DNA of 36,846 nucleotides from an uncultured Treponema sp. (lineage in GTDB: Bacteria > Spirochaetota > Spirochaetia > Treponematales > Breznakiellaceae): assembly GCA_964446515.1 (NCBI GenBank), contig CAYUPG010000002.1:1-36846 (forward strand), given 5' to 3'. Shown here piece after piece: positions 5,841 through 33,118 of this stretch. Each line of letters opens with the position of its first letter. The first letter of the stretch is position 1. The translations under genes and the position numbers were made by a program. The notes under the pieces were generated by a model. The model searched no databases. It worked only from the letters and a program-made list of their open reading frames with translations, and was not told the DNA's origin.

Positions 5841-6376
5841 ACCCTCAAAATACCCCGGAAACCCCGGGATGCATAGTAGGAATCGGCTCCGTTGTGGTAG
5901 ACGAAGACCTGGCCGTAGCGCCGGTCGCAGAAGAGGGCGCCGCCGAGCTTCCGGATGTCCTGGGGCGTGGCGATCCAGCTGGAGGTCTTCCTGTCGAATT
6001 CCCCAAGGGTCTGGAGCCTGCGGTACTGCGCTTCCGTCAGGAGCTCGATGCCCATGGAGCGGGCGCGGCCGAGGGCGCTGGAGGCGGGCTTGTGCTCCCT
6101 GCGCCCGTCCAGGGCTTCCTGGTCGTAGCAGAGGCTGCGTCTGCCCGCGGGGCTCTCGGCTGAGCAATCCATGAAGAGCAGTTCCCCCGTATCGGAATCC
6201 CGTCCCACCAGGTCCGGCTCTCCGCCGCTCTCTTCCATCCCGGCCAGCGATAGCAGCTTTCCGGGCGCTGCTTCCAAAGCGGCGCGCACCGTGTCCCAGG
6301 CGATGTCCCCATGGCGCTCGGGGTGCGCCTCTAAACGGGTTTTGAGGGCTTCAAGGAGCCTGTCTTGTTCGCTCAT
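5837..6376 (-). CDS. DUF4256-like protein
   Basis: 179 aa. Overall resemblance to the DUF4256 family from memory. 4-nt overlap with the downstream GNAT start. Confidence 0.6.
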   Translation of the reverse strand: MSEQDRLLEALKTRLEAHPERHGDIAWDTVRAALEAAPGKLLSLAGMEESGGEPDLVGRDSDTGELLFMDCSAESPAGRRSLCYDQEALDGRREHKPASSALGRARSMGIELLTEAQYRRLQTLGEFDRKTSSWIATPQDIRKLGGALFCDRRYGQVFVYHNGADSYYASRGFRGILRV

Positions 6377-6403
6377 GGGGTAAGTATACTACCGCAGGTC
6401 CCC

Positions 6404-6597
6404 GTGGGGGTAGGCCCGGGATCGCCGAGTCCGGGGGAGGAGGGGCTTTAGGGAGACGGGCTCCGGAGGAGACCGCGACTGTCCGGCGGGACCGCCGGAG
6501 GCGGGCCGGGGGAGGAAGCCCGGGCCGGGGGGGAGCCGCGGCGCTAGGGCCGCGGAATGGGGGGCCGGGCGGGCTCGGGGGGAGGGGTGCTCCCCCT
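6404..6597 (+). repeat. GC-rich intergenic repeat element, copy A
   Basis: Shares three ordered blocks with 31589-31730 and, inverted, with 15416-15694: GTGGGGGT.GGC.CGGGATCGCCGAG, then AGGAAGCCCG.GCC..GGGGGAGCCGCG, then GGGTGCTCCCCCT. The blocks are split by an extra segment flanked by the 11-bp direct repeat CCGGGGGAGGA (6431-6441 and 6506-6516). Confidence 0.6.
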
Positions 6598-6621
6598 AAC
6601 GCCTAACGGGAATCGAGGGGG

Positions 6622-6834
6622 CTAGGATTGCTCTCCGTCGTCGCCCGAATCCTCGTCGTCCTCCTCGCCTTCGGGCACGTCGAGGTATTCGTTGACCAGG
6701 TCTTCTTCGCCCTCGGGGATTTCGCCCCGGGCAATGGCTTCCCGGCGGAGCTTCTTCTTGAGCTCCTTCTCTTCTTTCTTCTTCTTGCGGTCCAGTTCCT
6801 TCCTGCGCTTCTCTGAGTTATAGTTCGGCTTCAA
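6622..6834 (-). CDS. Small highly charged protein (Lys/Arg/Glu-rich N-terminal half, acidic tail), function unknown
   Basis: 70-aa ORF with a TTG start. Sequence KRRKELDRKKKKEEKELKKKLRRE followed by EGEEDDEDSGDDGEQS. Only a weak RBS (GAAGGA). Confidence 0.4.
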   Translation of the reverse strand: MKPNYNSEKRRKELDRKKKKEEKELKKKLRREAIARGEIPEGEEDLVNEYLDVPEGEEDDEDSGDDGEQS

Positions 6835-6991
6835 TAGGTCCTTCTTGAGTCGTTGATACTCTACAGTTTACTACAAATTTCGTCCGGGGGAAAGGTGGCG
6901 GCCGCTGCGGCCGCCGTTTCGGCGTGGACGGACCGTCGGGGTCCGTCGGGTTGTCCGGGATATGTCAAATTTTGCGAAAATGTCTATCTTG

Positions 6992-7020
6992 TTGACTTCC
7001 CGCGGGGCTTGGCTGATACT
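6992..7020 (+). promoter_or_regulatory. Candidate promoter of the B12-sensor operon (TTGACT, 17 nt, GATACT)
   Basis: Hexamers at 6992-6997 and 7015-7020. This would leave a very short leader before the ATG at 7035, which has no obvious Shine-Dalgarno sequence. Confidence 0.3.
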
Positions 7021-7034
7021 GATGCTGTATCCCT

Positions 7035-8108
7035 ATGGAAAAAGTAAACGAAACGCCCGATACATCTTACCGTGCCCTCGCCGAGAGTCGGAGCGCCCTG
7101 GTTGAGGCGGCCCTCGCCGCCCTGGAGCGGCTGTCTCCCGGCATAGCCGGACGCTACGGCCCCCGGGGCTGGGAGCTGACCCGCCGGGACTTCGGCCTTA
7201 ACTTCGACTACCTGGCGGAGAGCCTGCGTTTGGACGCGCCGGAGCTCTTCCGATCCTATGTCGAATGGCTGGGACGGCTCTTCGAGGGCCTCAAGCTGCC
7301 CGCCGATACCCTCGACCTTACCCTTAGGTCCATGGCGGCCGCCCTGGAGGCGGTGCTGCCGCCCGATGCGGCGGAGGCGGGGACGGCCCTGCTGAGGGAG
7401 CTCTCAGGCGGCGGCGGCTCCGACGGGGGAGCCTCCCGCACCGGGGGCCCCGGGGGCGTCGAGGGCAGCTTGGCGCAGCCTTTCCTGAACTTCCTTCTGG
7501 AGGGAAAGCGCCGGGAGGCGGACGCGTACATCCAGGGCCTGGTAACGGGCGGAACGGACCTGGAGACCATTTACATGGAAGTCTTTCAGCCCAGTCAGGA
7601 GGAGCTCGGCAGGCTGTGGCTCGCCGGGCGCATCGGGGTGGACCGGGAGCACTTCTGCACCGCCGCCACCCAGACCATCATGTCCTCCCTGTACCCCCGG
7701 ATCTTTTCGGGTCCCCGGAACGGTAGGAGGCTCGTGGCGGCGGGGGCGGGGAGCGAGCTCCACGAGATCGGCATACGCATGGTGTCCGACCTCTTCGAGC
7801 TCCACGGCTGGGACACCTATTACCTGGGGAGCAACGCGCCGCCCCAGTCCATCGTGTCTTCCGTCAGGGAGCGCGGAGCGCCCCTGCTGCTCCTTTCCGC
7901 CACCATGGTGCCGAACCTCGCGGCCCTGGAGCGCACCATTGCCCTGGTCCGCGCGGAGAGTATCGGCCGGCCCATCGCGGTCATGGTCGGCGGCGGGCCC
8001 TTCAACCGGGCGCCGGGGCTCTGGCGCAGCGTCGGGGCCGACGGCTACGCTCCCGACGCGCGGTCGGCCCTTTCCGTCGCCGAATCCCTGCTCGGCGGCG
8101 CCCCGTGA
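7035..8108 (+). CDS. Stand-alone cobalamin (B12)-binding protein of CarH photoreceptor type, with no DNA-binding domain
   Basis: W195-x9-E205-H206 (LWLAGRIGVDREH; TGG at 7617-7619). E241-L-H243-E-I-G246 is the lower-ligand motif (His codon 7761-7763). A Rossmann-like C-terminus follows (LLLLSATM...AVMVGGG). The N-terminal ~125 aa are unassigned and are joined by a Gly/Ser-rich linker. Confidence 0.8.
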   Translation: MEKVNETPDTSYRALAESRSALVEAALAALERLSPGIAGRYGPRGWELTRRDFGLNFDYLAESLRLDAPELFRSYVEWLGRLFEGLKLPADTLDLTLRSMAAALEAVLPPDAAEAGTALLRELSGGGGSDGGASRTGGPGGVEGSLAQPFLNFLLEGKRREADAYIQGLVTGGTDLETIYMEVFQPSQEELGRLWLAGRIGVDREHFCTAATQTIMSSLYPRIFSGPRNGRRLVAAGAGSELHEIGIRMVSDLFELHGWDTYYLGSNAPPQSIVSSVRERGAPLLLLSATMVPNLAALERTIALVRAESIGRPIAVMVGGGPFNRAPGLWRSVGADGYAPDARSALSVAESLLGGAP

Positions 8109-9157
8109 GCTCTTCCGCGGGCTTCGCCGTCCTGACGGACGAAGCGGGGACGGTGCTGGCGGTCCTGCGGGACGAGCAGGGCATCCTGGGGCCTTCCCCC
8201 GAGGGCTCGCTTCTGGCCGCCCGCCTGGTTCCCGACTCGGTCGGCCCCTTCCTGGACATGCTCCTGGAGCTGCGCGGCGCAGGGGCGGCCTTCGACAGGG
8301 AGCTGGTGGTCCGGGGGGCCGAGGGGCCCGCGGCCTTCCACTTCGTCGCGGCCCGCCTGGGCGTGCAGGCGGTGGTGGTGGCCGGCGCCGCCCGGGAGGG
8401 CATCTTCGCCCTGTTCGAGGACCTGGCGCGGGCGAACGGGGAGCTGCAGCGCCTGGACGCCCTGAAGAACCGCTTTCTTGGCATGGCGGCCCACGACCTG
8501 CGGAACCCCATCGCCGCCATTGCGGCCTATGCGGACTACCTCCTGGATCCGCCGGCTCTCCCGGAAGGGGAAATACGGCACGCCCTGGAGAGCATCAAGC
8601 GGAGGGCGGAGTTCATGCAGGCCCTGGTCGAGGACCTGTTGGATACGGCGGCCATCGAGTCCGGTGCCCTGCGCCTGCACGAGGAGGCGGTGGACCTCTC
8701 CGCGGTCCTCGAGGAGGCGGCGGAAACCCTGAAGCCCGCCGCGGCGAAGCGGGACATACGTCTGGAGCTGCGGGCCGCCGCCGGACTTTCGGTCTGCGCC
8801 GATCCCGTGCGCCTTGCCCAGGCGGTGGGCAACCTCCTGTCCAACGCGGTCAAGTTTTCTCCCCGGGGCTCGACGGTGTCGGCGGAGGTCATCGCGGAGG
8901 AGCGGGAGGCCCTGGTGCGGGTGCGAGACCGGGGCCAGGGCATGGACGAGGAGCAGCTCCGCGCCCTGGGGACCCCCTTCGGCTCCCCCACGGCCCGCAC
9001 TCCCGACGGGGACAAGACCTCGGGCCTCGGGGTGCTCATAGCCCGGAGGATAGCGGAAGCCCACGGCGGACGCATCCTCTACCGCAGCGTTCCGGGGGAG
9101 GGCACCACGGCGGAGCTGCGGATACCCTCCCTTGCCGTAAAGGGGTGCACCGAATGA
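8105..9157 (+). CDS. Soluble sensor histidine kinase (HisKA + HATPase_c) with an unassigned ~110-aa N-terminal domain
   Basis: H-box FLGMAAHDLRNPIAAI, N-box LLSNAVKFS, G-boxes RDRGQGM and GLGVLIARR. No hydrophobic TM segment. The GTG start overlaps the upstream stop (GTGA at 8105-8108). Confidence 0.85.
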   Translation: MSSSAGFAVLTDEAGTVLAVLRDEQGILGPSPEGSLLAARLVPDSVGPFLDMLLELRGAGAAFDRELVVRGAEGPAAFHFVAARLGVQAVVVAGAAREGIFALFEDLARANGELQRLDALKNRFLGMAAHDLRNPIAAIAAYADYLLDPPALPEGEIRHALESIKRRAEFMQALVEDLLDTAAIESGALRLHEEAVDLSAVLEEAAETLKPAAAKRDIRLELRAAAGLSVCADPVRLAQAVGNLLSNAVKFSPRGSTVSAEVIAEEREALVRVRDRGQGMDEEQLRALGTPFGSPTARTPDGDKTSGLGVLIARRIAEAHGGRILYRSVPGEGTTAELRIPSLAVKGCTE

Positions 9158-10245
9158 GCGGCCCGCGGGCCCGGGAGGGGGAAGAGCTCCGTCCCGCCGT
9201 CCTCATCGTGGACGACGACGGGGACCTGCGGGATGCCTGGACCCGCATCCTGCGCGCCGCGGGGTATAGGGCCTCTGCGGCGCCCACGGGGGAGTCGGGC
9301 GTCGCGGCGGCCCTGGCGGAGGCTCCGGACATCATCCTGCTGGACCGGGGGCTTCCGGACCGGGACGGAACCGAGGTGTGCATCTCCCTGCGCAGGGAGC
9401 TCCTGGCCGCTTCTCCCCTCATCGCGGTGGTTTCGGGCTTTCGCCTCGATTCGGAGGACCGCATACGGGCCCTGGACAGCGGGGCGGACGAGGTCTTCGC
9501 CAAGCCGATAGGGAGCAGGGAGCTCCTGTCCCGGGTGCGGGCCCTGGATCGTCTGTGGGAGGAACGGCGGCGCCTGAAAAAAGAATCCTCCAACTGGGAG
9601 GCCCTCCTGAAGGCGGCCCACAACCGCATCGCCAACGATCTGGCTGCGGTGGAGAACCTGCTGCGCATGCGGGCCGAGGCCGCTCCCGAGGGGGCGGCCG
9701 ACTCCGGTCCGCTCTTGGAGGACCTCGCCGCCAGGGTCCGGGCCATCACGGAGCTCCATTCCCGGCTCAGGACCGGCACGATGGGGAACTGCGTGGAGGC
9801 GGGGGACTACCTGGCGGGCATACTGGGGAGCATAGAGCGCTACGCCTGCCCGGCGGACCAGGCGGTCCGCCTGACCTGGGCCGTCGATCGTGGCCTGCTC
9901 CTGGGGGACACCGATGCCGCGACCCTGGGCATGCTGGTGACGGAATTGGTGGGGAACGCCCTGCGCCACGCCTTTCCGGGGGGCAGGGGAGGATGCGTCG
10001 AGCTGAGCCTACGGGCCGACGGCGGCGGCGCGCTGCTGCGCGTGCGGGACGACGGGGTGGGCCTGCCTGCGGACTTTGCGCTGGAGCGGACTTCCGACCT
10101 CGGCCTGCGCCTGGTCGAGGCCCTGGCTTCCCGGCTGGGCGGAAGGCTCGCCCGGGGCGACGGGCCCGGAACGTCCTGGGAGGTTCGCCTGGCGGATGCC
10201 TGCCTGGAGCGGACGACGGCCGCGGAGGACGGCCGCGGGGAATGA
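9154..10245 (+). CDS. Hybrid receiver (REC) plus HisKA_2/HWE-like histidine kinase
   Basis: REC motifs (VLIVDDD, ILLDRGLPDRDG, AKP). H-box-like AAHNRIANDL (His codon 9619-9621). N-box ELVGNALRHAF, G1 DDGVGLP. The ATG overlaps the upstream stop (ATGA at 9154-9157). The ORF-track extension back to 7939 is rejected. Confidence 0.8.
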   Translation: MSGPRAREGEELRPAVLIVDDDGDLRDAWTRILRAAGYRASAAPTGESGVAAALAEAPDIILLDRGLPDRDGTEVCISLRRELLAASPLIAVVSGFRLDSEDRIRALDSGADEVFAKPIGSRELLSRVRALDRLWEERRRLKKESSNWEALLKAAHNRIANDLAAVENLLRMRAEAAPEGAADSGPLLEDLAARVRAITELHSRLRTGTMGNCVEAGDYLAGILGSIERYACPADQAVRLTWAVDRGLLLGDTDAATLGMLVTELVGNALRHAFPGGRGGCVELSLRADGGGALLRVRDDGVGLPADFALERTSDLGLRLVEALASRLGGRLARGDGPGTSWEVRLADACLERTTAAEDGRGE

Positions 10246-10257
10246 TAAGGAGCGCCC

Positions 10258-11916
10258 ATGCCTGAACGAACGATACTCCTGGTGGAGGACGAACCCATCA
10301 TCGCCATGGCGGAATCCCTGCGGCTGCGCAAGGGGGGCTACCGCGTTGAGACCGCCTCCACGGGGGAGGCGGCGGTGGAGCGGGCGCAGGCCCCGGATCC
10401 CGTGGACTTGATCCTCATGGACATCGACCTGGGCACGGGGATGGACGGGACGGAGGCGGCGCGGCGCATCCTCGAGGAGAGGGATCTGCCCATCGTGTTC
10501 CTGACCTCCCATTCGGAGCGGGAGATCGTGGAGCGGGTGCGGGGAATCACCCGCTACGGCTACGTGCTCAAGAACTCCGGGGACTTCGTCCTCTTCTCCT
10601 CGATCGAGATGGCCTTCGACCTGCACGAAGCCCACCGCCGAACGGAGGCGGAGCGCCGCAAGCTCCGTCTGGTGACGGAAAACCTCTCCGAGCTGGTCTG
10701 GCTCAGGGATCCCGCGGGGGGCAACATGCTCTTCGTAAATCCGGCCTACGAGGAGCTGTGGGGCAGGCCCCTCTCAAGCCTCTATGCGGATCCCCAGTCC
10801 TTTCTCTCCGCCGTCCACCCCGAGGACTTGGGGAAGGTGAGCGCGGCCCAGGAACGTCTGCGCAGGGAGGGCACGCCCTTCGACCTGGAGTACCGCATAG
10901 TCAGGCCCGACGGGGAGCTCCGTTGGGTGCACGGGCGGACGGCGGCGATTCAGGACGCGGAGGGCGCCACTCCCCTGATCCTGGGGGTCGCCGAGGACAT
11001 CACGGATAGGAAGGCCGTCTCCGACCAGGCGCTCCTGGCCCAGCGCAGGCTCAAGGGCATCATCCGCATCCTGGATGATTTCTCCTCCCCCGAAGAGGCC
11101 ATACTGGAGCGTCTCTTGGAGGAAGCGGAGGAGATCACCGGGAGCTCGATCTCCTACTTCTTCAACTACGATGCAGCTCGGCGGCTCTTCGCTCTCCAGG
11201 CCTGGTCCACGGGAGCTCTGCGGGACTGCGGCATCCGCAATCCGCCTAGGGAATACCGCTTGGAGGATACGGGCCTCTGGGGGGAGGTTGTGCGGAAGCG
11301 GAGGCCGGTGATCGTCAACGACTTCGAGTCGGGCGCGGGTGATCTGCGGAGGAACGGCTTTCCCCAGGGCCACGTGACGGTCTGCAGGCTCTTGTCCATC
11401 CCCGTCTGGTCCCGGGGAGAGATCGTGGCCACCATCGGGGTGGGCAACAAGAAGAGCGACTATACGGAGGAGGATGAGCTGCAGCTCGGCCTCCTGGTGG
11501 CCTCGGCTTGGCGCATCGTGGAGGCTAGGCGGAGCGAGCAGGCCCTGACGCTGAGCGAGGGGCGCTTCCAGAGCCTGTTCGGCGGTCTGCCCCTGGGACT
11601 CTACAGCTCGACGCCGGAGGGCCGCTTCTCCTACGTCAACGGCGCCTTCGCGGAGCTCCTCGGCTACGGCAGTCCGGAAGAGCTGACGGCGGCGGCGGAT
11701 GAGACGCCCATTGCGGCACTCCTCTACCCGGACCCGGAGCTGAGGCCCGGGGTATTGGAGGCGGCCCGGAACGCCGGGGGATCCTGGCACCGCTTCAGGG
11801 CGCGGTACCGCCGCAAGGACGGGTCCCTCCTTGAGGCAGACCAGTACATCAAGGCTCAGCGGGACGGAGACACCGGCGCGGAGGTCTTTTTCGGCGCCCT
11901 GCTGCCGGAAGGCTGA
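10258..11916 (+). CDS. Response-regulator receiver fused to PAS-GAF-PAS, with no recognisable output domain
   Basis: REC (LLVEDEP, LMDIDLGTGMDG, LKN). First PAS (NPAYEELWG...YRIVRPDGELRWV). GAF-like middle region (SISYFF...LSIPVW...IGVGNK). C-terminal PAS. AAGGAG lies 6 nt upstream of the ATG. Confidence 0.8.
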   Translation: MPERTILLVEDEPIIAMAESLRLRKGGYRVETASTGEAAVERAQAPDPVDLILMDIDLGTGMDGTEAARRILEERDLPIVFLTSHSEREIVERVRGITRYGYVLKNSGDFVLFSSIEMAFDLHEAHRRTEAERRKLRLVTENLSELVWLRDPAGGNMLFVNPAYEELWGRPLSSLYADPQSFLSAVHPEDLGKVSAAQERLRREGTPFDLEYRIVRPDGELRWVHGRTAAIQDAEGATPLILGVAEDITDRKAVSDQALLAQRRLKGIIRILDDFSSPEEAILERLLEEAEEITGSSISYFFNYDAARRLFALQAWSTGALRDCGIRNPPREYRLEDTGLWGEVVRKRRPVIVNDFESGAGDLRRNGFPQGHVTVCRLLSIPVWSRGEIVATIGVGNKKSDYTEEDELQLGLLVASAWRIVEARRSEQALTLSEGRFQSLFGGLPLGLYSSTPEGRFSYVNGAFAELLGYGSPEELTAAADETPIAALLYPDPELRPGVLEAARNAGGSWHRFRARYRRKDGSLLEADQYIKAQRDGDTGAEVFFGALLPEG

Positions 11917-11925
11917 TCCCTCCGT

Positions 11926-11954
11926 TTGACAAGGCCCGGAGGGGGTGCTACAAT
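11926..11954 (+). promoter_or_regulatory. Sigma70-like promoter (TTGACA, 17 nt, TACAAT) of the LacI-family gene
   Basis: TTGACA at 11926-11931 and TACAAT at 11949-11954 with a 17-nt spacer. Confidence 0.6.
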
Positions 11955-11973
11955 GCGTGTACGATCACGCATT
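11952..11973. promoter_or_regulatory. LacI-type operator-like palindrome overlapping the -10 and transcription start
   Basis: AATGCGTG-TACGAT-CACGCATT: perfect 8-bp arms with a central CG. The 18-nt core TGCGTGTACGATCACGCA matches the araA-upstream site at 14 of 18 positions. Confidence 0.5.
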
Positions 11974-11983
11974 GGGAGCGAGG

Positions 11984-13057
11984 ATGACGGTCAAAGAAAT
12001 CGCCGAGCTTGCGGGGGTGTCCATCGGAACGGTGGACCGGGTCCTGCACGGCCGCGGCAGGGTCTCGGCGGAGACCAAGGAACGGATCGAAGGCATCATC
12101 AAGCGTTCGGGCTTCACTCCCAATCCCATGGCCCGGCGCCTCAAGCGCAACAGGCCCTACCGCTTCTTCGCCCTCCTGCCCCACCGGGACGAGGATTCGG
12201 GGTACTGGGGGCAGGGCCGCGCGGGCATCCTGGCCGCCGCGGAGGAGGTCGGGCCCCTGGGGGCGGAGGTGAACGTCCTGGAGTTCGACCGCTACCGGGG
12301 CGCCTCCTTCCGGTCCGCCGCGGCGCGCATCCTTGAGTCCGAACCGGACGGCGTCATCCTGGCGCCCATCATGCCCGAGGAGAGCCGCGCCTTCGTGGGC
12401 TCCCTGACCGTCCCCTACGTATTCTTCGACGCCGATCTGCCGGGCACCTCTCCCCTGAGCGCCATAGGACAGGATTCTCTCCGGGGGGGCTACCTCGCGG
12501 GCCGCCTTGTCCACCTCTTCGCCGGGGGCGGCGCGGCCTCGGGCTGCTTCGCCGTCCTGGTGGCCCACCAGGAGGACTACCACATCGGCCGGCGCAGGGA
12601 CGGCTTTCTGCGCTATGCCGCACAGGCGCCCTTTCAGGCCCTGGCGGTGGAGGGGGTGGACCTGGAGCACGACGGCGCGGCCGCCGCGGCCCTGGCGGAT
12701 CTGCTGGATCGGCGCCCGGATTGCCGGGGGGTATTCGTGGCCGGGGCATCCTCCCACCGCATCGCCGAGGCCGCCCGGGACCTGCGGTCCCGGCGGAGCT
12801 TCATCATCGTGGGCTACGACTTGGTGGAGGCCAATAGGCGCCTCTTGGCCGAGGGGGCCATGGACGCGGTGATCTCCCAGCGGCCGGAGACCCAGGGCCG
12901 CCGGGCGGTGCTGGACCTGTACCGCGCCGTGGCGGTGGGCCGCCCGGTGGCGGCCCGGGTGGAAGTGCCCCTGGATGTCTACATCCGGGAAAACGTGCCG
13001 CCCGCGGCGGATGCGGGGAGCATAGAAACGGGGAAGGATTCCGGGGCGTGGCAGTGA
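11984..13057 (+). CDS. LacI-family transcriptional regulator (probable arabinose/pentose regulator)
   Basis: N-terminal HTH MTVKEIAELAGVSIGTVDRVLHGRGRVSAETKERI followed by a periplasmic-binding-protein-like core. The ATG at 11984 is preceded by GGAG. Confidence 0.85.
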   Translation: MTVKEIAELAGVSIGTVDRVLHGRGRVSAETKERIEGIIKRSGFTPNPMARRLKRNRPYRFFALLPHRDEDSGYWGQGRAGILAAAEEVGPLGAEVNVLEFDRYRGASFRSAAARILESEPDGVILAPIMPEESRAFVGSLTVPYVFFDADLPGTSPLSAIGQDSLRGGYLAGRLVHLFAGGGAASGCFAVLVAHQEDYHIGRRRDGFLRYAAQAPFQALAVEGVDLEHDGAAAAALADLLDRRPDCRGVFVAGASSHRIAEAARDLRSRRSFIIVGYDLVEANRRLLAEGAMDAVISQRPETQGRRAVLDLYRAVAVGRPVAARVEVPLDVYIRENVPPAADAGSIETGKDSGAWQ

Positions 13058-13080: not shown

Positions 13081-13115
13081 TACGCCGCTCTCCGGATGAC
13101 CATAACAGCGCCGTG

Positions 13116-13133
13116 TGCGTGAACGTACACACA
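13116..13133. promoter_or_regulatory. Second LacI-type operator-like site upstream of araA
   Basis: TGCGTGAAC|GTACACACA with a central CG, 12 nt upstream of the araA ATG. Similar to the 11954-11971 core. Confidence 0.45.
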
Positions 13134-13144
13134 AGGAGAAGAAC

Positions 13145-14641
13145 ATGATAGACCTCAAGCGCTTCGAATTCTGGTTCGTGGTAGGAAGCCAGGACCTCTA
13201 CGGAGAGGAGACCTTGAAGCAGGTTGCCGCCCACGCCAAGATCATGGCCGAGGGCTTCGGCGCGGACCCGGTCCTGCCGGGCAAGGTGGTGCTGAAGCCC
13301 ACGGTGCTGACCCCCGCGGGCATACGGCGCACCTTCGAGGAGGCGAACGCCGATCCCGCCTGCGCGGGCATCATCACCTGGATGCACACCTTCTCGCCCT
13401 CCAAGATGTGGATCGCGGGGCTCTCCATCAACCGTAAGCCCCTGCTCCACCTGCACACCCAGTACAACCGGGACATACCCTGGGCGTCCATAGACATGGA
13501 CTTCATGAACCTGAACCAGAGCGCCCACGGCGACCGGGAGCACGGATTCATCCACGCCCGCATGCGCCTGCCCCGAAAGGTGGTGGTGGGCCACTGGGAG
13601 GACCCGGCGGTGCGCCGCCGCATGGGCATCTGGATGCGCGCCGCGGCGGCCTGCGCCGACGGAAAGGCCTCCGCGGTGGTGCGCTGGGGCGACAACATGC
13701 GGGAGGTCGCCGTCACCGAGGGCGACAAGGTCGAGGCGCAGATCAAGTTCGGCTGGCAGGTCAACGGCTGGGGCGTGGGCGACCTCGTCGCCAAGGTGAA
13801 CGCCGTGTCCGATGCCGCCGTGGACGTCCTGATGAAGGAATACGAGGCCAAGTACGAGCTGACTGCGGCGGCCAAGTCCGAGGGCCCCGCGCGGAAGGCG
13901 GTGCGGGAGCAGGCCCGCTTCGAGCTGGGCATGAAGGCCTTCCTGGAGGAGCAGGGGGCCGGCGCCTTCACCACCACCTTCCAGGACCTGCACGGCCTGC
14001 CCCAGCTGCCGGGCCTCGCGGTCCAGCGGCTCATGGCGCAGGGCTACGGCTTCGGCGGCGAAGGGGACTGGAAGACCTCCATGCTGGTCCGGTCCATGAA
14101 GGTCATGGCCGCGGGCCTCGAGGGCGGCACTTCCTTCATGGAGGACTACACCTACCACTTCGAGCCGGGCAAGGAGGCCATCCTCGGCGCCCACATGCTG
14201 GAGGTCTGCCCCACGATCGCGGCGCACAAGCCCCGCATCGAGGTGCACCCCCTGGGCATAGGCGGCAAGGCCGATCCCGCCCGCATCGTCTTCGACGCGG
14301 CTACGGGAAAGGCTGTCTGCGCCACCCTGGTTGATCTGGGCGACCGCTTCCGGATGATCGTCAACGAGGTGGAGTCCGTGAAGATCGAGGCCGCCATGCC
14401 CAAGCTGCCCGGGGCCCGGGTGCTCTGGAAGCCCCTCCCCAGCCTCGCCGCCGCGGCGGAAAGCTGGATCGTCGCCGGCGGCGCCCACCACTCGGGCTAT
14501 TCCACGGCCATCGGCACGGAGTACCTGCGGGATTGGGCCGAGATGGTCGGCGTGGAGTTCGTGCGCATCGGCGAGGGGACCTGCCCCGACCGCCTGCGGG
14601 ACGAGCTGCGCTGGGGCGAGGCCTTCTGGTCCAAGCGCTGA
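13145..14641 (+). CDS. araA: L-arabinose isomerase
   Basis: About 498 aa. FWFVVGSQDLYGEETL, HTFSPSKMW and FGGEGDWKT are characteristic of AraA. AAGGAGAAG RBS before the ATG at 13145. Confidence 0.92.
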   Translation: MIDLKRFEFWFVVGSQDLYGEETLKQVAAHAKIMAEGFGADPVLPGKVVLKPTVLTPAGIRRTFEEANADPACAGIITWMHTFSPSKMWIAGLSINRKPLLHLHTQYNRDIPWASIDMDFMNLNQSAHGDREHGFIHARMRLPRKVVVGHWEDPAVRRRMGIWMRAAAACADGKASAVVRWGDNMREVAVTEGDKVEAQIKFGWQVNGWGVGDLVAKVNAVSDAAVDVLMKEYEAKYELTAAAKSEGPARKAVREQARFELGMKAFLEEQGAGAFTTTFQDLHGLPQLPGLAVQRLMAQGYGFGGEGDWKTSMLVRSMKVMAAGLEGGTSFMEDYTYHFEPGKEAILGAHMLEVCPTIAAHKPRIEVHPLGIGGKADPARIVFDAATGKAVCATLVDLGDRFRMIVNEVESVKIEAAMPKLPGARVLWKPLPSLAAAAESWIVAGGAHHSGYSTAIGTEYLRDWAEMVGVEFVRIGEGTCPDRLRDELRWGEAFWSKR

Positions 14642-16065: not shown

Positions 16066-17562
16066 TTACAATGTCTCATATATTTCTTTGAAGCTCTCGA
16101 TTCCGGCCTCAAGGTTCTCGATGATCTCCTGGGCGAGCACATCCGGTTCGGGCAGATTGTCCAGGTCGGTGAGGCTCTTGTCCTTGATCCAGGTTATGTC
16201 GAGGCTCGTCTTGTCGCGGGCGAGGATCTCGTCGTAGCTGAACTTCCGCCAGCGGCCCTCGGGGTTCTTCTCGGCGTCCCAGGTTTGTTTGCGCTTGGCG
16301 ATGCTTCCCGGTTTATAGCATTGGATGAAGTCCGCGAGGTCATCGAAGGCGAGGGGATGCTGCTTGAGCGTGAAGTGCATGTTGGTCCGGAAATCGTAGA
16401 TCCAGACGTCCTTGGTCCACGGCGTCTTCGCGGCGGGATGGTTGTCGAAGAAGAGGACATTTGCCTTGACGCCCTGCTTGTAGAAGACGCCCGTCGGGAG
16501 CCGCAGTATCGTGTGGAGGTTCGTCGTCTCCATGAGTTTTTTACGAACAGTCTCGCCGACGCCCCCTTCGAAGAGGACGTTGTCGGGCAGGACCACGGCG
16601 GCGCGGCCATCGGACTTGAGCATCGTCCTGATGTGCTGGAGGAAGTTGAGCTGCTTGTTGCTCGTGGTGACCCAGAAATCCTGACGATTGTAGGTCAGGT
16701 CCTCGGCCTCCTGCTCCCCCTCCTCGTTGGTGAAGGTCATGCTGCTCTTCTTGCCGAAGGGGGGATTCGCGAGCACGTAGTCGACGCGGAGTCCCGTATC
16801 GGCGACGAGGGAATCGGTGCTCGATATGAAGGTCTCGCTCTCGAAGTCGCCGATGTTGTGGAGGAAGCAGTTCATGAGCGCGAGGCGCCTCGTGGAGGCG
16901 ACGATCTCGTTCCCGAAGAAGGTCTTGTTCTTGAGGAATTCCTTATCGTCCCGGGAGAGGGTGTAATTTTCGGGATTTGCCAGGAAGTCGTAGGCTGCCA
17001 GGAAGAAGCCGCCCGTGCCGCAGGCGGGATCTGCTATCGTCTTCTGGGGCTCGGGCCGGACGCAGGCCACCATGGCGCGGATGAGGGCGCGCGGGGTGAA
17101 GTACTGTCCGGCGCCGCTCTTCGTGTCCTCGGCGTTCTTCTCAAGGAGCCCCTCGTAGATCCGTCCTTTGATGTCCGCACCCATCGTGCTCCACGCTTCC
17201 TTGTCGATCATATCGATGAGCTTATAGAGCTTGGCGGGGTCTTGGATCTTGTTCTGGCTCTTCAGGTATATCTGCCCGAGGACGCCTTTCTGCTTGGAGA
17301 GCTCGCGCAACAGCTCGGTGTAGTGATTTTCGAGAGCCGCCCCCTTCTTGTCGGTTAGGCTCTCCCAATCGTAGCCCACCGGGATCGGCAGCTTGCGGCT
17401 GTAGGGCGGCTTGGAGAACTCGTCGGCGAGCTTGAGGAAGAGCAGGAAGGTTATCTGCTCCAGGTAATCCCCGTAGCCCACGCCGTCGTCGCGGAGGGTA
17501 TTGCAGAAGGCCCAAACCTTGCTGATGATTCCGGAGCCGGAATCGATGTTGCCGTTATTCAT
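16066..17562 (-). CDS. hsdM: Type I restriction-modification system, DNA methyltransferase subunit
   Basis: 498 aa. N-terminal HsdM-type helical domain, AdoMet motif DPACGTGGF and catalytic NPPFG (LANPPFGKKS). The ATG at 17560-17562 lies inside the last codons of yoeB. Confidence 0.92.
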   Translation of the reverse strand: MNNGNIDSGSGIISKVWAFCNTLRDDGVGYGDYLEQITFLLFLKLADEFSKPPYSRKLPIPVGYDWESLTDKKGAALENHYTELLRELSKQKGVLGQIYLKSQNKIQDPAKLYKLIDMIDKEAWSTMGADIKGRIYEGLLEKNAEDTKSGAGQYFTPRALIRAMVACVRPEPQKTIADPACGTGGFFLAAYDFLANPENYTLSRDDKEFLKNKTFFGNEIVASTRRLALMNCFLHNIGDFESETFISSTDSLVADTGLRVDYVLANPPFGKKSSMTFTNEEGEQEAEDLTYNRQDFWVTTSNKQLNFLQHIRTMLKSDGRAAVVLPDNVLFEGGVGETVRKKLMETTNLHTILRLPTGVFYKQGVKANVLFFDNHPAAKTPWTKDVWIYDFRTNMHFTLKQHPLAFDDLADFIQCYKPGSIAKRKQTWDAEKNPEGRWRKFSYDEILARDKTSLDITWIKDKSLTDLDNLPEPDVLAQEIIENLEAGIESFKEIYETL

Positions 17563-17821
17563 AATGCGTCCACATCCTCAATACGCGTACGATTTTTTCA
17601 AACTCGAATACTTGGTACACCAGCCGATGCTGGATGTTGATGCGCCGCGAATAGGCTCCGGCGAGGTCGCCCAGGAGCTTCTCAAACGGCGGCGGATTTC
17701 TGAAGGGGTCCTCGGCCAGGATGGCGATGAGGACCTTCGCCTTCTCCTTAAGACCGGAAGCCTCGATCTTCTTGGCGTCTTTCACGGCCTGACGCGCGTA
17801 CACGACCTGCCACATCACCAA
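17555..17821 (-). CDS. yoeB: Txe/YoeB-family toxin (mRNA interferase)
   Basis: 88 aa. SRRINIQHRLVYQV and the C-terminal THYE match the YoeB family. Confidence 0.85.
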   Translation of the reverse strand: MVMWQVVYARQAVKDAKKIEASGLKEKAKVLIAILAEDPFRNPPPFEKLLGDLAGAYSRRINIQHRLVYQVFEFEKIVRVLRMWTHYE

Positions 17822-18057
17822 TCAAGCTTTGTAGCGCTCTTGGAGAGTGGCTCCTTCATGCCCTCCCGAATCGACTCCCGCATCCCCGGAATGGATAACA
17901 AGTAGAGGGTTTCCTGGATGGCGCGCCAATCGTCCTCGGCGACCAGGACGGCGTTACCCCGCTTGCCCGTGATCGTCACGGGCTCATGCGCTTCGTTGGC
18001 TTCATCGATGAGGCGGTAGAGGTTCGCGCGCGCGTCGCTAGCGGATAACATGGGCAT
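17815..18057 (-). CDS. yefM: Phd/YefM-family antitoxin
   Basis: MPMLSASDARANLYRLIDEA...VTITGKRGNAVLV matches Phd/YefM. GGAGG lies 5 nt before the ATG at 18057 (an alternative ATG is at 18069). 7-nt overlap with yoeB. Confidence 0.85.
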   Translation of the reverse strand: MPMLSASDARANLYRLIDEANEAHEPVTITGKRGNAVLVAEDDWRAIQETLYLLSIPGMRESIREGMKEPLSKSATKLDW

Positions 18058-18074
18058 GGCTGCCTCCATTAATA

Positions 18075-18103
18075 AACGTACGTTATTGCGTACGAACTGT
18101 CAA
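18075..18103 (-). promoter_or_regulatory. Candidate yefM-yoeB promoter with two CGTACG core palindromes
   Basis: On the minus strand: TTGACA (18098-18103), 17 nt, TACGTT (18075-18080). The CGTACG cores at 18077-18082 (within AACGTACGTT) and 18089-18094 are 12 bp centre to centre and occupy the spacer and -10. Confidence 0.4.
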
Positions 18104-18170
18104 GCAGGATATGTTACTCTCAGTTATCAAGGATTCCTTGACAGTTGCCGCCCTTTACAATTCCTTCGCT

Positions 18171-18401
18171 TTAAAGCCGTTGCTGATATGCCGTCTGAAC
18201 TACCGAGGATTGCTCGGTCGTTGCCGCTTCATCGAGCTCACCTTCGGCGAAGATGTTCTTGAGATGCAAACCGATAGTATCGCTATCCTTCTCAAACAGG
18301 TCCGCCATCTTCTTTTGAGAGAGCCAGACCGTATCCTCTTCAAAGCGGACCTCGATCTGGGTGAGATTATCAGGGGTTTGATACATAACAATCTCGCTCA
18401 T
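18171..18401 (-). pseudogene. Truncated RhuM-family gene (N-terminal ~70 aa only)
   Basis: MSEIVMYQTPDNLTQIEVRFEEDTVWLSQKKMADLFEKD...NIFAEGELDE matches the N-terminus of RhuM-family proteins, which I recall as about 300 aa or more. The ORF stops after 76 aa. Confidence 0.65.
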
Positions 18402-18418
18402 GACCCCCCCTTTCTATG

Positions 18419-18482
18419 TTGCGTCTCACATAATACCACAATTGAGACGCAAATCGTAATATGTCTCACTCATGAGACGCAA
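18419..18482. promoter_or_regulatory. Repeated 10-mer TTGCGTCTCA/TGAGACGCAA around an extended -10, upstream of the rhuM remnant
   Basis: TTGCGTCTCA at 18419-18428 is inverted relative to TGAGACGCAA at 18443-18452. A second direct TGAGACGCAA lies at 18473-18482, 30 bp away. On the minus strand, TGGTATTAT sits between the inner pair. Confidence 0.45.
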
Positions 18483-18524
18483 TCGATGGAAGCGAGCGGA
18501 AGCCAGTTGGATACGAAGGGCGAT

Positions 18525-19700
18525 TTACCCATCAGCGTGTCGCTTCCTTTCGCGGTCTACCACGTTTTTCAAGCCGCTCGTTTCGGCGTTCGCCGCGGGA
18601 GGAGCCTTCTTATACGAGGGCTGAAGCATATTCTTCTCCCGCTCGGTCATGTTATCACATACGCGTGCCAGGCTTATGAGTATCGATTTGGGATCGGCTT
18701 CAAGATCGATTCCTATGAGACGGAGCTCAAAATCGCCGAGATCTATTCGATGATCGAAGGATTCGTCCTTCATCGCGTAGACGAGGCTGGCCGACCACCT
18801 TCGCTTCAGTAGGTCGCGACGCCGCAGGGCGCTTAAGTAAGACGCTATTTGGTAGAGATGCGCGGAGCGGATCTTTTCATCCCCACTAGGATGTTTGGCA
18901 AAGGGATATTCGTAATACTTCGCATCGATAACCATGCAGCGGTAGTGACCGAAGATGGTGACGTCCGTCTCCATGATCGGTTCCAGTGGGCTCCTCGCGC
19001 TCTTAATGGGGTTCCAATGAAAGCGATTTCGCGCGACTCGGAAATCCCGGCCTAAAGTTTCTTTCAGGCCTCTCCTGACGAAGGCCTCGAAAGCGCGATT
19101 CATGCTCCTCCTATCGAAGGGATCCTCGACCTCCACATCGCCTTCTCGCGCCCTGGCTGAGTTCAGGACCAACCGAGCCCAGAAGAGGGCGCGGCGGTAA
19201 CCTGGGTTGTTTCGGTGGAGGCGGGCTCTTCTTAGGGCCGAGCGGCCTTCTACGATGGTTGGAAGCTCCGTTCCCGGAAATGCACGTCCGAGCGCCCGCG
19301 CTCTCTCGCGCGTTTCCGGGCATAGCTCGCTCAGGCCTTCGGCCAGGAGGAGCGCGGTCTTTATAGCGCTATTCTGCGGGCATTCCGGCGATAATCGCGC
19401 CGCAACGGATACCGCCTTCATGCCCATACCGAAGTCGCGTCCGAGCGTCCGGCCCATGTCTATCCGTCCCGCGATAGAAGGGCCGAAGCTTGATTCCTCT
19501 ACGTAAACGCGATCGGCCCCCCGCCTCAGGATCGTGGCTGCGGCGTCCGATAGGGCGCGGAACAGAAATTCGCATGGATTCGTTTCGCCGTACTCTCCCG
19601 AGAAGAGCTCGTCCTTCGGCGTATACAAGTTACCCGCATAAGTGAGGAGGAAGTAGAGCGCCTGCGGCGACAATCCTAAAGGATCAGCTCGTCCCGCCAT
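18525..19700 (-). CDS. mcrC: McrC-like endonuclease subunit of a McrBC-type modification-dependent restriction system
   Basis: 391 aa. PD-(D/E)xK-like MVIDAKYYEY with downstream LYQIASYL, as in the McrC family. 25-nt overlap with the upstream mcrB-like gene. Confidence 0.8.
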   Translation of the reverse strand: MAGRADPLGLSPQALYFLLTYAGNLYTPKDELFSGEYGETNPCEFLFRALSDAAATILRRGADRVYVEESSFGPSIAGRIDMGRTLGRDFGMGMKAVSVAARLSPECPQNSAIKTALLLAEGLSELCPETRERARALGRAFPGTELPTIVEGRSALRRARLHRNNPGYRRALFWARLVLNSARAREGDVEVEDPFDRRSMNRAFEAFVRRGLKETLGRDFRVARNRFHWNPIKSARSPLEPIMETDVTIFGHYRCMVIDAKYYEYPFAKHPSGDEKIRSAHLYQIASYLSALRRRDLLKRRWSASLVYAMKDESFDHRIDLGDFELRLIGIDLEADPKSILISLARVCDNMTEREKNMLQPSYKKAPPAANAETSGLKNVVDRERKRHADG

Positions 19701-21949: not shown

Positions 21950-21981
21950 ATCGACCTCCCCATTCAGTTAGTATTATCGAT

Positions 21982-23391: not shown

Positions 23392-23393
23392 CC

Positions 23394-33105: not shown

Positions 33106-33118
33106 GCGGGAGGAGAGC

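Follow-up and report, generated by a model that had tools for sequence, protein, structure and literature searches.

Described relatives and layout of the locus

In photocobilins, a cobalamin-binding domain resembling that of CarH is paired with a globin-like domain for biliverdin (photoglobin). The family was predicted in 2021 (PMC8717448, available text) and characterised in 2024 by Zhang et al. with SasPcob from Saccharothrix syringae (PDB 8J2W/8J2X) and AbDPcob (8J2Y) (PMC10979010). Through protein-protein contact, SasPcob and AbPcob control a diguanylate cyclase in trans, and a globin-first group was listed from AlphaFold models only and is uncharacterised in that paper (PMC10979010). In the available text of the 2021 survey, Schneider et al. 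described photoglobin, B12-binding_2 and B12-binding, in either order, as a 'regulatory bundle' in two-component operons, a bioinformatic prediction without experiment. The listed neighbours were sensor kinases, REC proteins and multi-kinase cascades, with S-helix, PAS and GAF domains, and none of the photoglobin loci had been studied according to the authors (PMC8717448). Neither PMC10979010 nor the available text of PMC8717448 contains an experiment on any globin-first member or any photocobilin-kinase pair.

The product of gene 1 of the locus described here shares the B12-binding fold, the Wx9EH motif and the ExH lower-axial His with CarH/LitR photoreceptors, and by analogy their logic, in which a dark-state oligomer disassembles in the light state, would be expected. 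It differs from CarH in having no MerR DNA-binding head, an extra globin domain and a kinase rather than DNA as its predicted output. AerR/PpaA, the cobalamin-binding antirepressors of CrtJ/PpsR in purple bacteria, resemble gene 1 in being stand-alone, in binding B12 and in having no DNA-binding domain; they work by contacting partner signalling proteins, as is predicted for gene 1. AerR differs in its ligand, photolysed (hydroxo-) cobalamin, and in its target, a transcription factor, and to our knowledge it has neither a photoglobin domain nor a kinase partner.

The window, which is the whole stretch of 36,846 nt that was analysed, contains four tightly packed open reading frames on the + strand at 7035-11916, with two overlapping junctions and one 12-nt gap:

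6992..7020, + strand: sigma-70-like promoter candidate, TTGACT-17-GATACT, 15 nt 5' of the gene 1 ATG (consensus match only)
7035..8108, + strand: gene 1, stand-alone photocobilin of 357 aa, photoglobin domain followed by CarH-like cobalamin-binding domain
8105..9157, + strand: gene 2 (kinase 1), soluble HisKA-class histidine kinase of 350 aa, GTG start, Pfam HisKA and HATPase_c
9154..10245, + strand: gene 3, REC-HisKA_2-HATPase_c protein of 363 aa (Pfam), ATG overlapping the gene 2 stop
10258..11916, + strand: gene 4, REC-PAS-GAF-PAS protein of 552 aa (Pfam)

Genes 1 and 2 overlap by 4 nt in GTGA (8105-8108), genes 2 and 3 overlap in ATGA (9154-9157), and the 12-nt gap before the gene 4 ATG at 10258 contains TAAGGAG; all three junctions lie where the original prediction had placed them. 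The promoter candidate matches the consensus at 9 of 12 positions, and two such sites are present in 6300-12200, compared to 0.3 expected from shuffled sequences. We read the genes at 7035-11916 as one operon for a cytoplasmic light-signalling phosphorelay with photocobilin input, to which we assign a probability of roughly 0.6. The locus is a good example, though not a new one, of a family for which a link to kinases has been predicted.

A globin-first photocobilin

At the level of sequence, the gene 1 product is a photocobilin with the globin domain first and not a truncated CarH. Its parts are as follows:

7056..7406, + strand: photoglobin (biliverdin-binding globin-like) domain, aa 8-124, from the SasPcob alignment and the model
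7407..7472, + strand: Gly/Ser-rich flexible linker, aa 125-146, low pLDDT and variable in the family
7473..7703, + strand: four-helix-bundle B12 cap, aa 147-223 (PF02607, E 4e-12)
7719..8090, + strand: Rossmann-type B12-binding domain, aa 229-352 (PF02310, E 1.6e-19)

The whole protein matches SasPcob (8J2W) with an E-value of 4e-29, and both the B12 half (query 152-348) and the globin half (query 8-104) contribute matches. Pfam assigns B12-binding_2 (148-219) and B12-binding (232-346) and gives no MerR or helix-turn-helix match, in agreement with the proposed lack of a MerR head. The N-terminal domain of about 125 aa, previously regarded as unassigned, shows homology to the globin domain with which SasPcob binds biliverdin: residues 8-104 align with chain positions 221-316 (domain E 5e-7; residue numbers in the SasPcob paper equal the chain index + 6). 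This domain forms six helices in the AlphaFold2 model (pLDDT 90.8 for the protein), and many homologues of gene 1 carry PF00502. Linker residues 127-139 have a pLDDT below 50, and the linker varies in length and sequence across homologues.

The cap motif comprises G192xxW195 (W codon 7617-7619) and E205-H206 (7647-7652), with W195, E205 and H206 aligned to SasPcob W61, E71 and H72. The lower-axial His243 (codon 7761-7763) lies within E241-L-H243-E-I-G and aligns with SasPcob His108. W195, E205, H206 and H243, the residues originally taken as hallmarks of the CarH class, are invariant in all 38 full-length homologues, so the motif matches are not due to chance. G265 and P269 of the G265xxxP269 motif in the B12-binding domain are also invariant in homologues. 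One signature position is off, with Ser240 standing where the GxxH motif normally has Gly (PMC11796333).

The best solved relatives of the B12 module are photoreceptors, namely SasPcob 8J2W, the CtMerR CBD (8JBS) and TtCarH. Structure comparison likewise places B12 photoreceptor domains closest to the model, with a Foldseek TM of about 0.8 (normalised to the CarH CBD) for TtCarH (PDB 5C8A/5C8D). These comparisons support assignment of the module to the light-responsive CarH-like class rather than to the methyltransferase/mutase class. The reading of some automatic annotations, in which gene 1 encodes an MtbC/MtaC/MtgC-type corrinoid methyl-carrier, is highly improbable. JGI labels many homologues 'methanogenic corrinoid protein MtbC1', and MtbC and MtgC are the top NCBIfam matches at an E-value of about 1e-13. 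However, these matches reach 44-49 bits, far under the NCBIfam cut-offs of 310-370, while much higher scores are obtained with photoreceptor structures, the Wx9EH residues of the adenosyl pocket never vary, most loci show coupling to a kinase, and methyltransferase genes were not found among the neighbours.

Gene 1 and SasPcob share the adenosyl-pocket W, EH and lower-axial His and the biliverdin-contact Asp and Trp; both are stand-alone, and both lack the Cys for a covalent link and a His beside the Trp. The two differ in domain order, which is reversed in gene 1, in the B12 half (about 28% identity), in the position of SasPcob His137, a cross-dimer bridge to biliverdin that is replaced by Ser272 in gene 1, and in context, as SasPcob is linked to STAS, SpoIIE and PP2C genes and gene 1 to a PAS-like histidine kinase cascade. 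Leu196 occupies the CarH His132 position, and a CarH-type bis-His light state is therefore not expected.

We regard it as unlikely that the protein is a B12-only green-light sensor of the CarH type, with a structural or docking N-terminal helical domain that holds no chromophore, as the original prediction implied. The photoglobin domain of AbPcob binds biliverdin poorly, with an occupancy of about 20%, and AbPcob is functional with AdoCbl alone (PMC10979010). The distal position in gene 1 is Thr (T49) instead of Cys, for which no covalent bilin link is expected according to the available text of PMC8717448. However, SasPcob also lacks the Cys and yet binds biliverdin at 0.7 uM. Its Asp270 and Trp296, which contact biliverdin in the crystal structure, align with D52 (codon 7188-7190) and W78 (codon 7266-7268) of gene 1 and are conserved family-wide, with W78 invariant and D52 present in at least 90% of the 38 full-length homologues. 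The weak binding by AbPcob has been ascribed to an Asp-to-His change that is absent in gene 1.

For a photocobilin, we infer that the C-terminal CarH-like domain binds adenosylcobalamin base-off/His-on via His243, beneath the W195/E205/H206 cap, and that the photoglobin domain holds a linear tetrapyrrole, probably biliverdin, non-covalently via D52 and W78 beside the corrin. By analogy with SasPcob, green light (absorbed by AdoCbl) or red light (by the bilin) would cleave the Co-C bond, upon which the cap helix would rearrange and the dark-state dimer would break.

Kinase 1 and its conserved pairing with the photocobilin gene

Three features were mapped in gene 2:

8117..8434, + strand: cryptic PAS-fold N-terminal domain, aa ~5-110 (model and Foldseek; no Pfam match)
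8430..8446, + strand: deletion scar, the single remaining copy of a 17-bp repeat, GGGCGAACGGGGAGCTG; 165 bp missing compared to relatives
8465..9127, + strand: HisKA (aa 121-187) and HATPase_c (aa 233-341) core (Pfam E 1.1e-14 and 1.5e-23)

The H-box (His130), N-box, G1 (DRGQGM), F-box and G2 are intact as read from the sequence. No 19-residue window in the gene products is hydrophobic enough for a membrane helix (maximum Kyte-Doolittle mean 1.54), as anticipated for the kinase. The kinase had been presented without a sensor. The model of its N-terminal domain (pLDDT 91.5) has a five-stranded sheet plus helices, and the best Foldseek matches are PAS domains (TM ~0.70). Thus, according to the model, the first ~105 residues are a divergent PAS fold, a family-specific partner of photocobilin genes.

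We surveyed the neighbourhoods of 76 related loci from many phyla with sufficient 3' sequence. The N-terminal domain of kinase 1 is encoded directly downstream on the same strand in 58 of these; 71 have a signalling-helix motif and 57 a HisKA core. The pairing is thus conserved across phyla, as the original prediction required. Of 61 loci, 23 have a 4-nt overlap between the photocobilin gene and the next gene, and in 49 the two are at most 20 nt apart. Elsewhere the PAS-like/S-helix module precedes GGDEF, HisKA_2 or other outputs, or stands alone, and it therefore behaves like an input unit that travels with photocobilin genes. Fusions of photoglobin-B12-S-helix-HisKA-HATPase (with or without REC) and of photoglobin-B12-PAS-like-S-helix were also found. 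The conserved pairing and the fusions support, at the sequence level, a photoreceptor that controls the kinase directly. As to the 'stoichiometric complex' suggested earlier, gene overlap and fusion proteins support functional coupling; the stoichiometry itself is conjecture.

The available text of the 2021 survey describes highly divergent contexts and does not single out the Pfam-undetected PAS-like/S-helix module (PMC8717448), whereas in roughly three of every four loci examined here it directly follows the photocobilin gene. Gene 1 is a further member of an already described family, and novelty of the family cannot be claimed; the original prediction overstated it, since the family and its association with two-component and multi-kinase genes are described in PMC10979010 and in the available text of PMC8717448. 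The original remark that this use of B12 photochemistry is poorly characterised holds for kinase control by such a protein (PMC10979010).

A deletion in kinase 1 had been overlooked. Gene 2 lacks 165 bp, encoding 55 aa of the conserved signalling-helix linker, and the loss occurred between 17-bp direct repeats. The segment, including the SRLNNEL..QREL motif, is retained in a near-identical relative (L081, 98-99% nt identity) and in 14 of 14 other aligned homologues. As the signalling helix is absent from this allele, sensor-kinase coupling may be altered or lost. The relay could be disabled or rewired in this genome (uncoupled, locked on or off, or decaying), or the gap could be an assembly artefact; we consider this improbable, and it is compatible with the phosphorelay reading rather than exclusive of it. 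The position of the deletion exactly between the repeats, its restriction to this sequence and a length that is not a whole number of heptads are in its favour. On the other hand, the reading frame is preserved across the deletion, the rest of the gene matches L081 at all but 12 of 1053 aligned bases, and all catalytic motifs are intact. At the junction, the PAS domain again runs into the DHp helix through an unbroken helix-like stretch, an arrangement seen in many short-linker PAS kinases.

In the proposed relay, kinase 1 would read the change in the photocobilin through its PAS-fold domain, by docking or by signal transduction; in normal members of the family, this domain would drive the HisKA core through the coiled-coil signalling helix.

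The later genes, the host and the nature of the signal

Pfam agrees with the architectures first proposed for genes 3 and 4. Gene 3 has REC (aa 16-129, Asp64), HisKA_2 (aa 156-227, His156) and HATPase_c (aa 254-346) domains, predicting a receiver-gated second kinase, and is also present in L081 and in another relative, L082. A REC-first gene comes next in 30 of 69 loci; of 30 such genes scanned, gene 3 among them, 16 encode kinases. All four genes of the cassette are retained in a 70%-identical relative, whose flanking genes are different. Gene 4 has REC (aa 6-110, Asp55), PAS (136-250), GAF (278-422, Pfam GAF_2) and, at the C-terminus, a PAS-like region, and no output domain can be recognised in it; its counterpart has 552 aa in L081 and 451 aa in L082, where the last PAS is missing. 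Kinase 1 would phosphorylate the gene 3 receiver and thereby switch the HisKA_2-type kinase; the gene 4 protein would then probably be the last acceptor, or a modulator. The ultimate effect may arise outside the operon or be exerted through protein contacts.

The DNA probably comes from an anaerobic member of the Treponemataceae, and anaerobes are frequent among the relatives (Anaerolineae, Syntrophobacteraceae, Methanotrichaceae). It is not obvious that such anaerobic habitats offer light or permit oxygen-dependent biliverdin synthesis, and no heme oxygenase, cobalamin or adenosyltransferase genes and no cobalamin riboswitch were found in the window. The same architecture might convey a non-light signal to the kinase, such as the availability of cobalamin or a linear tetrapyrrole, the ligand or redox state of cobalamin, or oxygen, akin to the AerR/PpaA B12-binding antirepressors or with an anaerobically made bilin as ligand. 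We hold this as a tentative second option. It is consistent with the probable host, with the many members from anaerobes of sediments and digesters, including a Methanotrichaceae archaeon, and with the lack of a heme oxygenase gene nearby. In addition, AdoCbl shifts the biliverdin affinity of SasPcob about tenfold, so that occupancy itself alters the protein (PMC10979010). Against it, the adenosyl-pocket residues W195, E205 and H206, by which light-responsive B12 domains are defined (PMC11796333), are invariant family-wide, the sole characterised relatives are photoreceptors, and many members are light-exposed (Heliorestis, Chloroflexia, soil Paenibacillus, Adhaeribacter).

Pfam finds no DNA-binding domain in the four encoded proteins, and the cluster is thus without a DNA-binding regulator, as had been noted. 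The LacI gene 3' of the cluster has its own strong promoter-like site at 11926-11954.

The putative four-gene operon and its boundaries

Genes 1 to 4 were recovered at exactly the coordinates given in the original prediction, and by Pfam analysis their products are a B12-binding pair, a HisKA kinase, a REC-HisKA_2 kinase and a REC-PAS-GAF-PAS protein.

Genes and promoter-like sites of the photoreceptor operon
6992-7020, promoter-like site upstream of gene 1
7035-8108, +, gene 1, 357 aa; Pfam B12-binding_2 and B12-binding
8105-9157, +, gene 2, 350 aa, GTG start; Pfam HisKA and HATPase_c
9154-10245, +, gene 3, 363 aa; Pfam REC-HisKA_2-HATPase_c
10258-11916, +, gene 4, 552 aa; Pfam REC-PAS-GAF-PAS
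11926-11954, near-consensus sigma-70-like promoter, TTGACA-17-TACAAT with an extended -10 TG, directly past the gene 4 stop

The expected stop/start overlaps were read at the junctions of genes 1 and 2 (GTGA at 8105-8108) and of genes 2 and 3 (ATGA at 9154-9157), and the 12-nt gap expected before gene 4 was found to contain a TAAGGAG ribosome-binding site. None of the four proteins contains a hydrophobic segment of sufficient length to form a membrane helix, in agreement with the claim that the first kinase lacks transmembrane segments. The phospho-accepting residues are all present: His130 in gene 2, Asp64 and His156 in gene 3, and Asp55 in gene 4.

The promoter-like site at 11926-11954 is much stronger than the one at 6992-7020; it lies ahead of a LacI-family regulator gene, araA and araD, and sets the 3' limit of the photoreceptor operon. 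Based on the two sites, genes 1-4 look like one transcription unit, apart from the downstream LacI-araA-araD genes. A hairpin at approximately 11917-11944 was rejected as a terminator after gene 4, being no better folded than shuffled sequence (z 0.47). Also rejected was a 768-aa ORF (7939-10245, +), which is gene 3 prolonged upstream through GC-rich sequence and overlaps gene 2 in a different frame. Its domain matches occur only from the ATG at 9154 onward, illustrating that ORF length is a poor guide at 70% GC. Divergent from gene 1 is a 70-aa ORF (6622-6834, -); one half of its product is helical and rich in Lys and Glu, and the tail is very acidic (…EGEEDDEDSGDDGEQS). A matching 70-aa gene call, with no Pfam match, is present in the near-identical relative (locus L081), and no counterpart was seen beside the cassette in the 70% identical relative (locus L082).

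Gene 1 and the photocobilin family

The best match of gene 1 among solved structures was SasPcob, the photocobilin of Saccharothrix syringae (8J2W/8J2X; E 4e-29), which aligned in two segments. Residues 152-348 align with the B12 module of SasPcob (chain 12-203), and residues 8-104 with its C-terminal biliverdin-binding globin-like domain, or photoglobin (8J2W chain 221-316; 32.5 bits, domain E 5e-7). The helical N-terminal domain, which the original prediction had left unassigned, is thus a photoglobin domain, and gene 1 encodes a photocobilin with its halves in the opposite order. A weak Phycobilisome match (PF00502) was also seen in the N-terminal domain of many homologues. The B12 half was identified by Pfam as a four-helix bundle (PF02607, E 4e-12) followed by a Rossmann fold (PF02310, E 1.6e-19). 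The AlphaFold2 model (pLDDT 90.8) is confident outside the Gly/Ser linker, displays an all-helical N-terminal domain of six helices, and superimposes on 8J2W with an rmsd of 2.0 A over 204 columns. The closest solved folds were the CtMerR B12 domain, the photocobilins and TtCarH. With the full model, Foldseek aligns only the B12 half to photocobilins, owing to the permuted domain order, so that the globin-domain homology is drawn from the sequence alignment with SasPcob. Based on the alignment and the structure model, we conclude that gene 1 belongs to the photocobilin family. This also corrects the labels "methanogenic corrinoid protein" and "MerR family regulator" that such genes routinely receive in annotation.

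The Wx9EH motif and the lower axial histidine that had been proposed for gene 1 were both found (W195-x9-E205-H206 and ELH243EIG), and all four residues are invariant in 38 full-length homologues. Their counterparts in SasPcob are listed below in the numbering of the paper, from which the 8J2W chain index is obtained by subtracting 6.

Chromophore-contact residues of gene 1 and their SasPcob counterparts (PMC10979010)
W195, E205, H206: Trp61, Glu71, His72; adenosyl pocket
H243: His108 (chain His102); lower axial ligand
D52, W78: Asp270, Trp296; biliverdin binding and contact with the corrin

In the same alignment, W78 is invariant and D52 is kept in at least 90% of the homologues. T49, three residues before D52, occupies the distal site of the globin pocket. 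According to Schneider et al. (2021), this position may be Cys, Ser or Thr in photoglobins (PMC8717448), and the threonine makes a covalent bilin link unlikely; binding of biliverdin is likewise non-covalent in SasPcob. Of the published signature of light-responsive cobalamin-binding domains (GxxW, EH, GxxH and GxxxP; PMC11796333), three of the four elements are exact in gene 1 and invariant in the family (G192xxW195, E205-H206 and G265xxxP269). The GxxH element reads G239-S240-E-L-H243, with Ser240 replacing the family-consensus Gly. The chromophore-contact residues of gene 1 listed above are conserved.

Gene 1 differs from the CarH/LitR regulators in several respects. The N-terminal MerR-type helix-turn-helix of these proteins had been reported as missing, and accordingly neither Pfam nor NCBIfam returned a MerR or HTH match. 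With the CarH model NF052513, the match is confined to residues 145-300 and scores 43.5 bits against a cut-off of 400. His132 of TtCarH, located beside the cap Trp and responsible for the bis-His light state, is replaced by Leu196 in gene 1, the family consensus being Q or L. With Leu rather than His after W195, a CarH-type bis-His light state is not expected, as in SasPcob. A corrinoid methyl-carrier (MtbC/MtgC/MtaC), the methyltransferase-type B12 family that would have made the Wx9EH match coincidental, was rejected on two grounds: the NCBIfam scores were 44-49 bits against cut-offs of 310-370, and no methyltransferase is encoded in the window or in either of the two relatives, L081 and L082.

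The photocobilin family comprises 1,362 clusters at 50% identity (matches at E<=1e-30), and at least 589 loci with a gene 1 relative were found in species-representative genomes. These relatives range over Chloroflexota, Acidobacteriota, Desulfobacterota, Bacteroidota, Bacillota, Gammaproteobacteria and one Methanotrichaceae archaeon. None of the relatives among 185,579 species-representative genomes exceeds 47% identity, and only two metagenomic relatives exceed 50%.

The proposed kinase partner, its neighbourhood and natural fusions

The kinase core of gene 2 matches PF00512 and PF02518. Its motifs were read in the sequence (H130 in AAHDLRNP, N243/N247, DRGQGM, F292 and GLGVLI), and the catalytic positions (DHp His; N, G1, F and G2 boxes) are invariant in the kinase family alignment. 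For the first ~105 residues, Pfam returned nothing consistent, and PDB sequences searched with a profile yielded no match beyond noise at E~1. The structure model of this segment (pLDDT 91.5) displays a five-stranded antiparallel sheet with flanking helices, for which Foldseek returned PAS domains at TM 0.65-0.74, with 75 matches at E<=1e-3. The PAS fold is thus identified solely by the structure model and Foldseek, being missed by sequence profiles; as modeled, the kinase is not sensor-less, since its first ~105 residues adopt a PAS-like fold. In typical family members, a ~55-residue coiled coil joins this domain to the DHp helix; its SRLNNEL..QREL..KN.EL motif, which is of the S-helix (signalling helix) type, hardly varies.

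Gene 2 encodes 350 aa, as compared to ~400 aa in its relatives and 405 aa in L081. Relative to L081, 165 bp are absent; the missing stretch is framed precisely by a 17-bp direct repeat, GGGCGAACGGGGAGCTG, present in two copies, of which one is left at 8430-8446. The deletion is in frame and removes the whole 55-aa signalling helix, which joins the PAS domain straight to the DHp helix. The segment is kept in L081, which is 98-99% identical, and in all 14 other aligned homologues. Because 55 residues equal eight heptads minus one, the helical register would shift. The deletion may reflect true slippage or an error of the assembly.

Three profiles from the gene 2 family (the N-terminal domain, the coiled-coil linker and the HisKA-HATPase core) were searched against 80 loci, of which the 76 with at least 1.3 kb of downstream sequence were counted. 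The PAS-like domain was located directly 3' of the photocobilin gene on the same strand in 58 of the 76 loci, the linker motif downstream in 71, and the HisKA core in 57, showing that the gene pairing, conservation of which had been named as a test, extends well beyond this contig. A 4-nt overlap between the photocobilin gene and the next gene was seen in 23/61 loci and a distance within 20 nt in 49/61; both counts are upper estimates, since the start nearest the upstream stop was chosen, which favours small distances. The PAS-like domain and linker were also found joined to GGDEF domains, to HisKA_2 kinases and to one PAS-kinase-REC-Hpt protein, as well as free-standing in a protein of ~170 aa. 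Kept beside the photocobilin gene with such varied outputs, the module behaves as an output-independent input module. In two loci of the Bacteroidota genus Adhaeribacter (L035, 6993-7493; L077, 6985-7497), the photocobilin gene is followed by one for a ~170-aa protein that consists of the PAS-like domain and the signalling helix and carries no output domain, which suggests that the module is able to work as a free-standing adaptor.

Further downstream, 30 of 69 loci have a gene that begins with REC after gene 2. Of 30 such genes scanned, gene 3 of the window among them, 16 are themselves kinases, usually REC-PAS-(GAF)-HisKA. The exact four-gene cassette is present in L081 (98-99% identical) and in L082 (70% identical), the latter with different flanking genes.

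Natural fusions support the coupling of photocobilin and kinase independently. Several cluster representatives and one genomic locus encode photoglobin-B12-S-helix-HisKA-HATPase proteins, with or without REC; one fusion is photoglobin-B12-GGDEF, and the homologous protein P0268 is photoglobin-B12-PAS-like-S-helix.

Whole-photocobilin fusions (L, genomic locus; P, homologous protein)
L071 529-2721; P0256, P0262, P0267, P0282, P0283, P0287, P0300, P0346, P0268: fused to S-helix-HisKA-HATPase (with or without REC), GGDEF, or PAS-like/S-helix alone

These proteins could be ready-made single-chain light-regulated kinases or cyclases. Taken together, the genes for photocobilin and PAS-like/S-helix kinase are coupled across phyla and in some cases fused.

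Proposed signal route, host and other genes of the window

Schneider et al. (2021) already predicted the bundle of photoglobin and B12 domain and its two-component and multi-kinase operons, and stated that no such locus had been studied (PMC8717448). Zhang et al. (2024) characterized two photocobilins with the B12 domain first and listed the globin-first group from models only; the function of stand-alone photocobilins was considered less clear, and protein-protein interactions were proposed (PMC10979010). Our literature search found no published test of a photocobilin with a histidine kinase. The observations of the original reading are confirmed and its interpretation is supported in part: the light-responsive type of B12 module and the kinase pairing hold, whereas the unassigned N-terminal domain and the novelty do not. 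Novelty is modest because the family and its signalling context were already published in these two papers. The present analysis adds the identification of a specific PAS-like/S-helix partner module that escapes Pfam, together with the evidence from fusions and the allele that carries the deletion.

By analogy with SasPcob and AbDPcob, the second characterized photocobilin (PMC10979010), AdoCbl and a bilin would sit side by side in the gene 1 protein, and the Co-C bond would be cleaved by green light directly and by red light via the bilin. The cap helix would then move and the dark-state dimer come apart, and the altered surface or oligomeric state may change the activity of a partner by protein-protein contact. 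We propose the PAS-like domain of kinase 1 as this partner. Kinase 1 would phosphorylate the receiver of the HisKA_2 kinase encoded by gene 3, the REC-PAS-GAF-PAS protein of gene 4 may serve as end acceptor or modulator, and the final output presumably lies outside the operon.

AraA of the window (araA, 13115-14641) shares 87% identity with proteins of Treponemataceae and Treponema MAGs, from which the host is probably an anaerobic spirochaete; the contig probably derives from a high-GC, free-living Treponemataceae bacterium. Many photocobilin relatives are also from anaerobes, so that neither light exposure nor oxygen-dependent biliverdin synthesis is self-evident. The window contains neither heme oxygenase nor cobalamin genes, and an Rfam scan of its whole length returned no cobalamin riboswitch or other known RNA. 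A possible alternative is that the signal is not light but, for example, the status of cobalamin or tetrapyrroles, the redox state or a bilin produced anaerobically.

A more speculative reading is that the PAS-like domain and S-helix, found after most globin-first photocobilin genes, form a dedicated, so far unnamed acceptor that would dock on the photocobilin and pass its state to interchangeable outputs (kinases, diguanylate cyclases), and that in strict anaerobes such as the Treponemataceae host the pair may report cobalamin/tetrapyrrole status, oxygen or an anaerobic linear tetrapyrrole instead of light. We consider this tentative, with a probability of roughly one in five. If the module is such a dedicated acceptor, the helix-deletion allele of the window would be a natural test of signal passage across the helix. 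The locus and its roughly 60 syntenic relatives point to a concrete partner, a small PAS-fold domain that a signalling helix joins to a kinase or a cyclase, and what stand-alone photocobilins control thereby becomes directly testable with two purified proteins. Photocobilins respond to light over the whole visible range, and a photocobilin-PAS pair would equip engineered two-component systems with a modular green/red-light input.

Elsewhere in the window, a defence island (16066-26171, -) displays a lower GC content (0.47-0.59) than the surroundings of the operon (0.65-0.73). It consists of a type I restriction-modification system with a McrBC-like pair set within it.

Genes of the defence island
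16066-17562, -, hsdM, type I restriction-modification system
18525-19700, -, McrC-like, McrBC-like pair
19676-21949, -, AAA_5 McrB-like, McrBC-like pair
21982-23391, -, hsdS, type I restriction-modification system
23394-26171, -, hsdR, type I restriction-modification system

Two adjoining genes at 31834-35173 (+) contain Listeria-Bacteroides repeats (Flg_new), one of them also BspA-type leucine-rich repeats, and their products resemble the surface proteins that are typical for Treponema and for gut or digester anaerobes.
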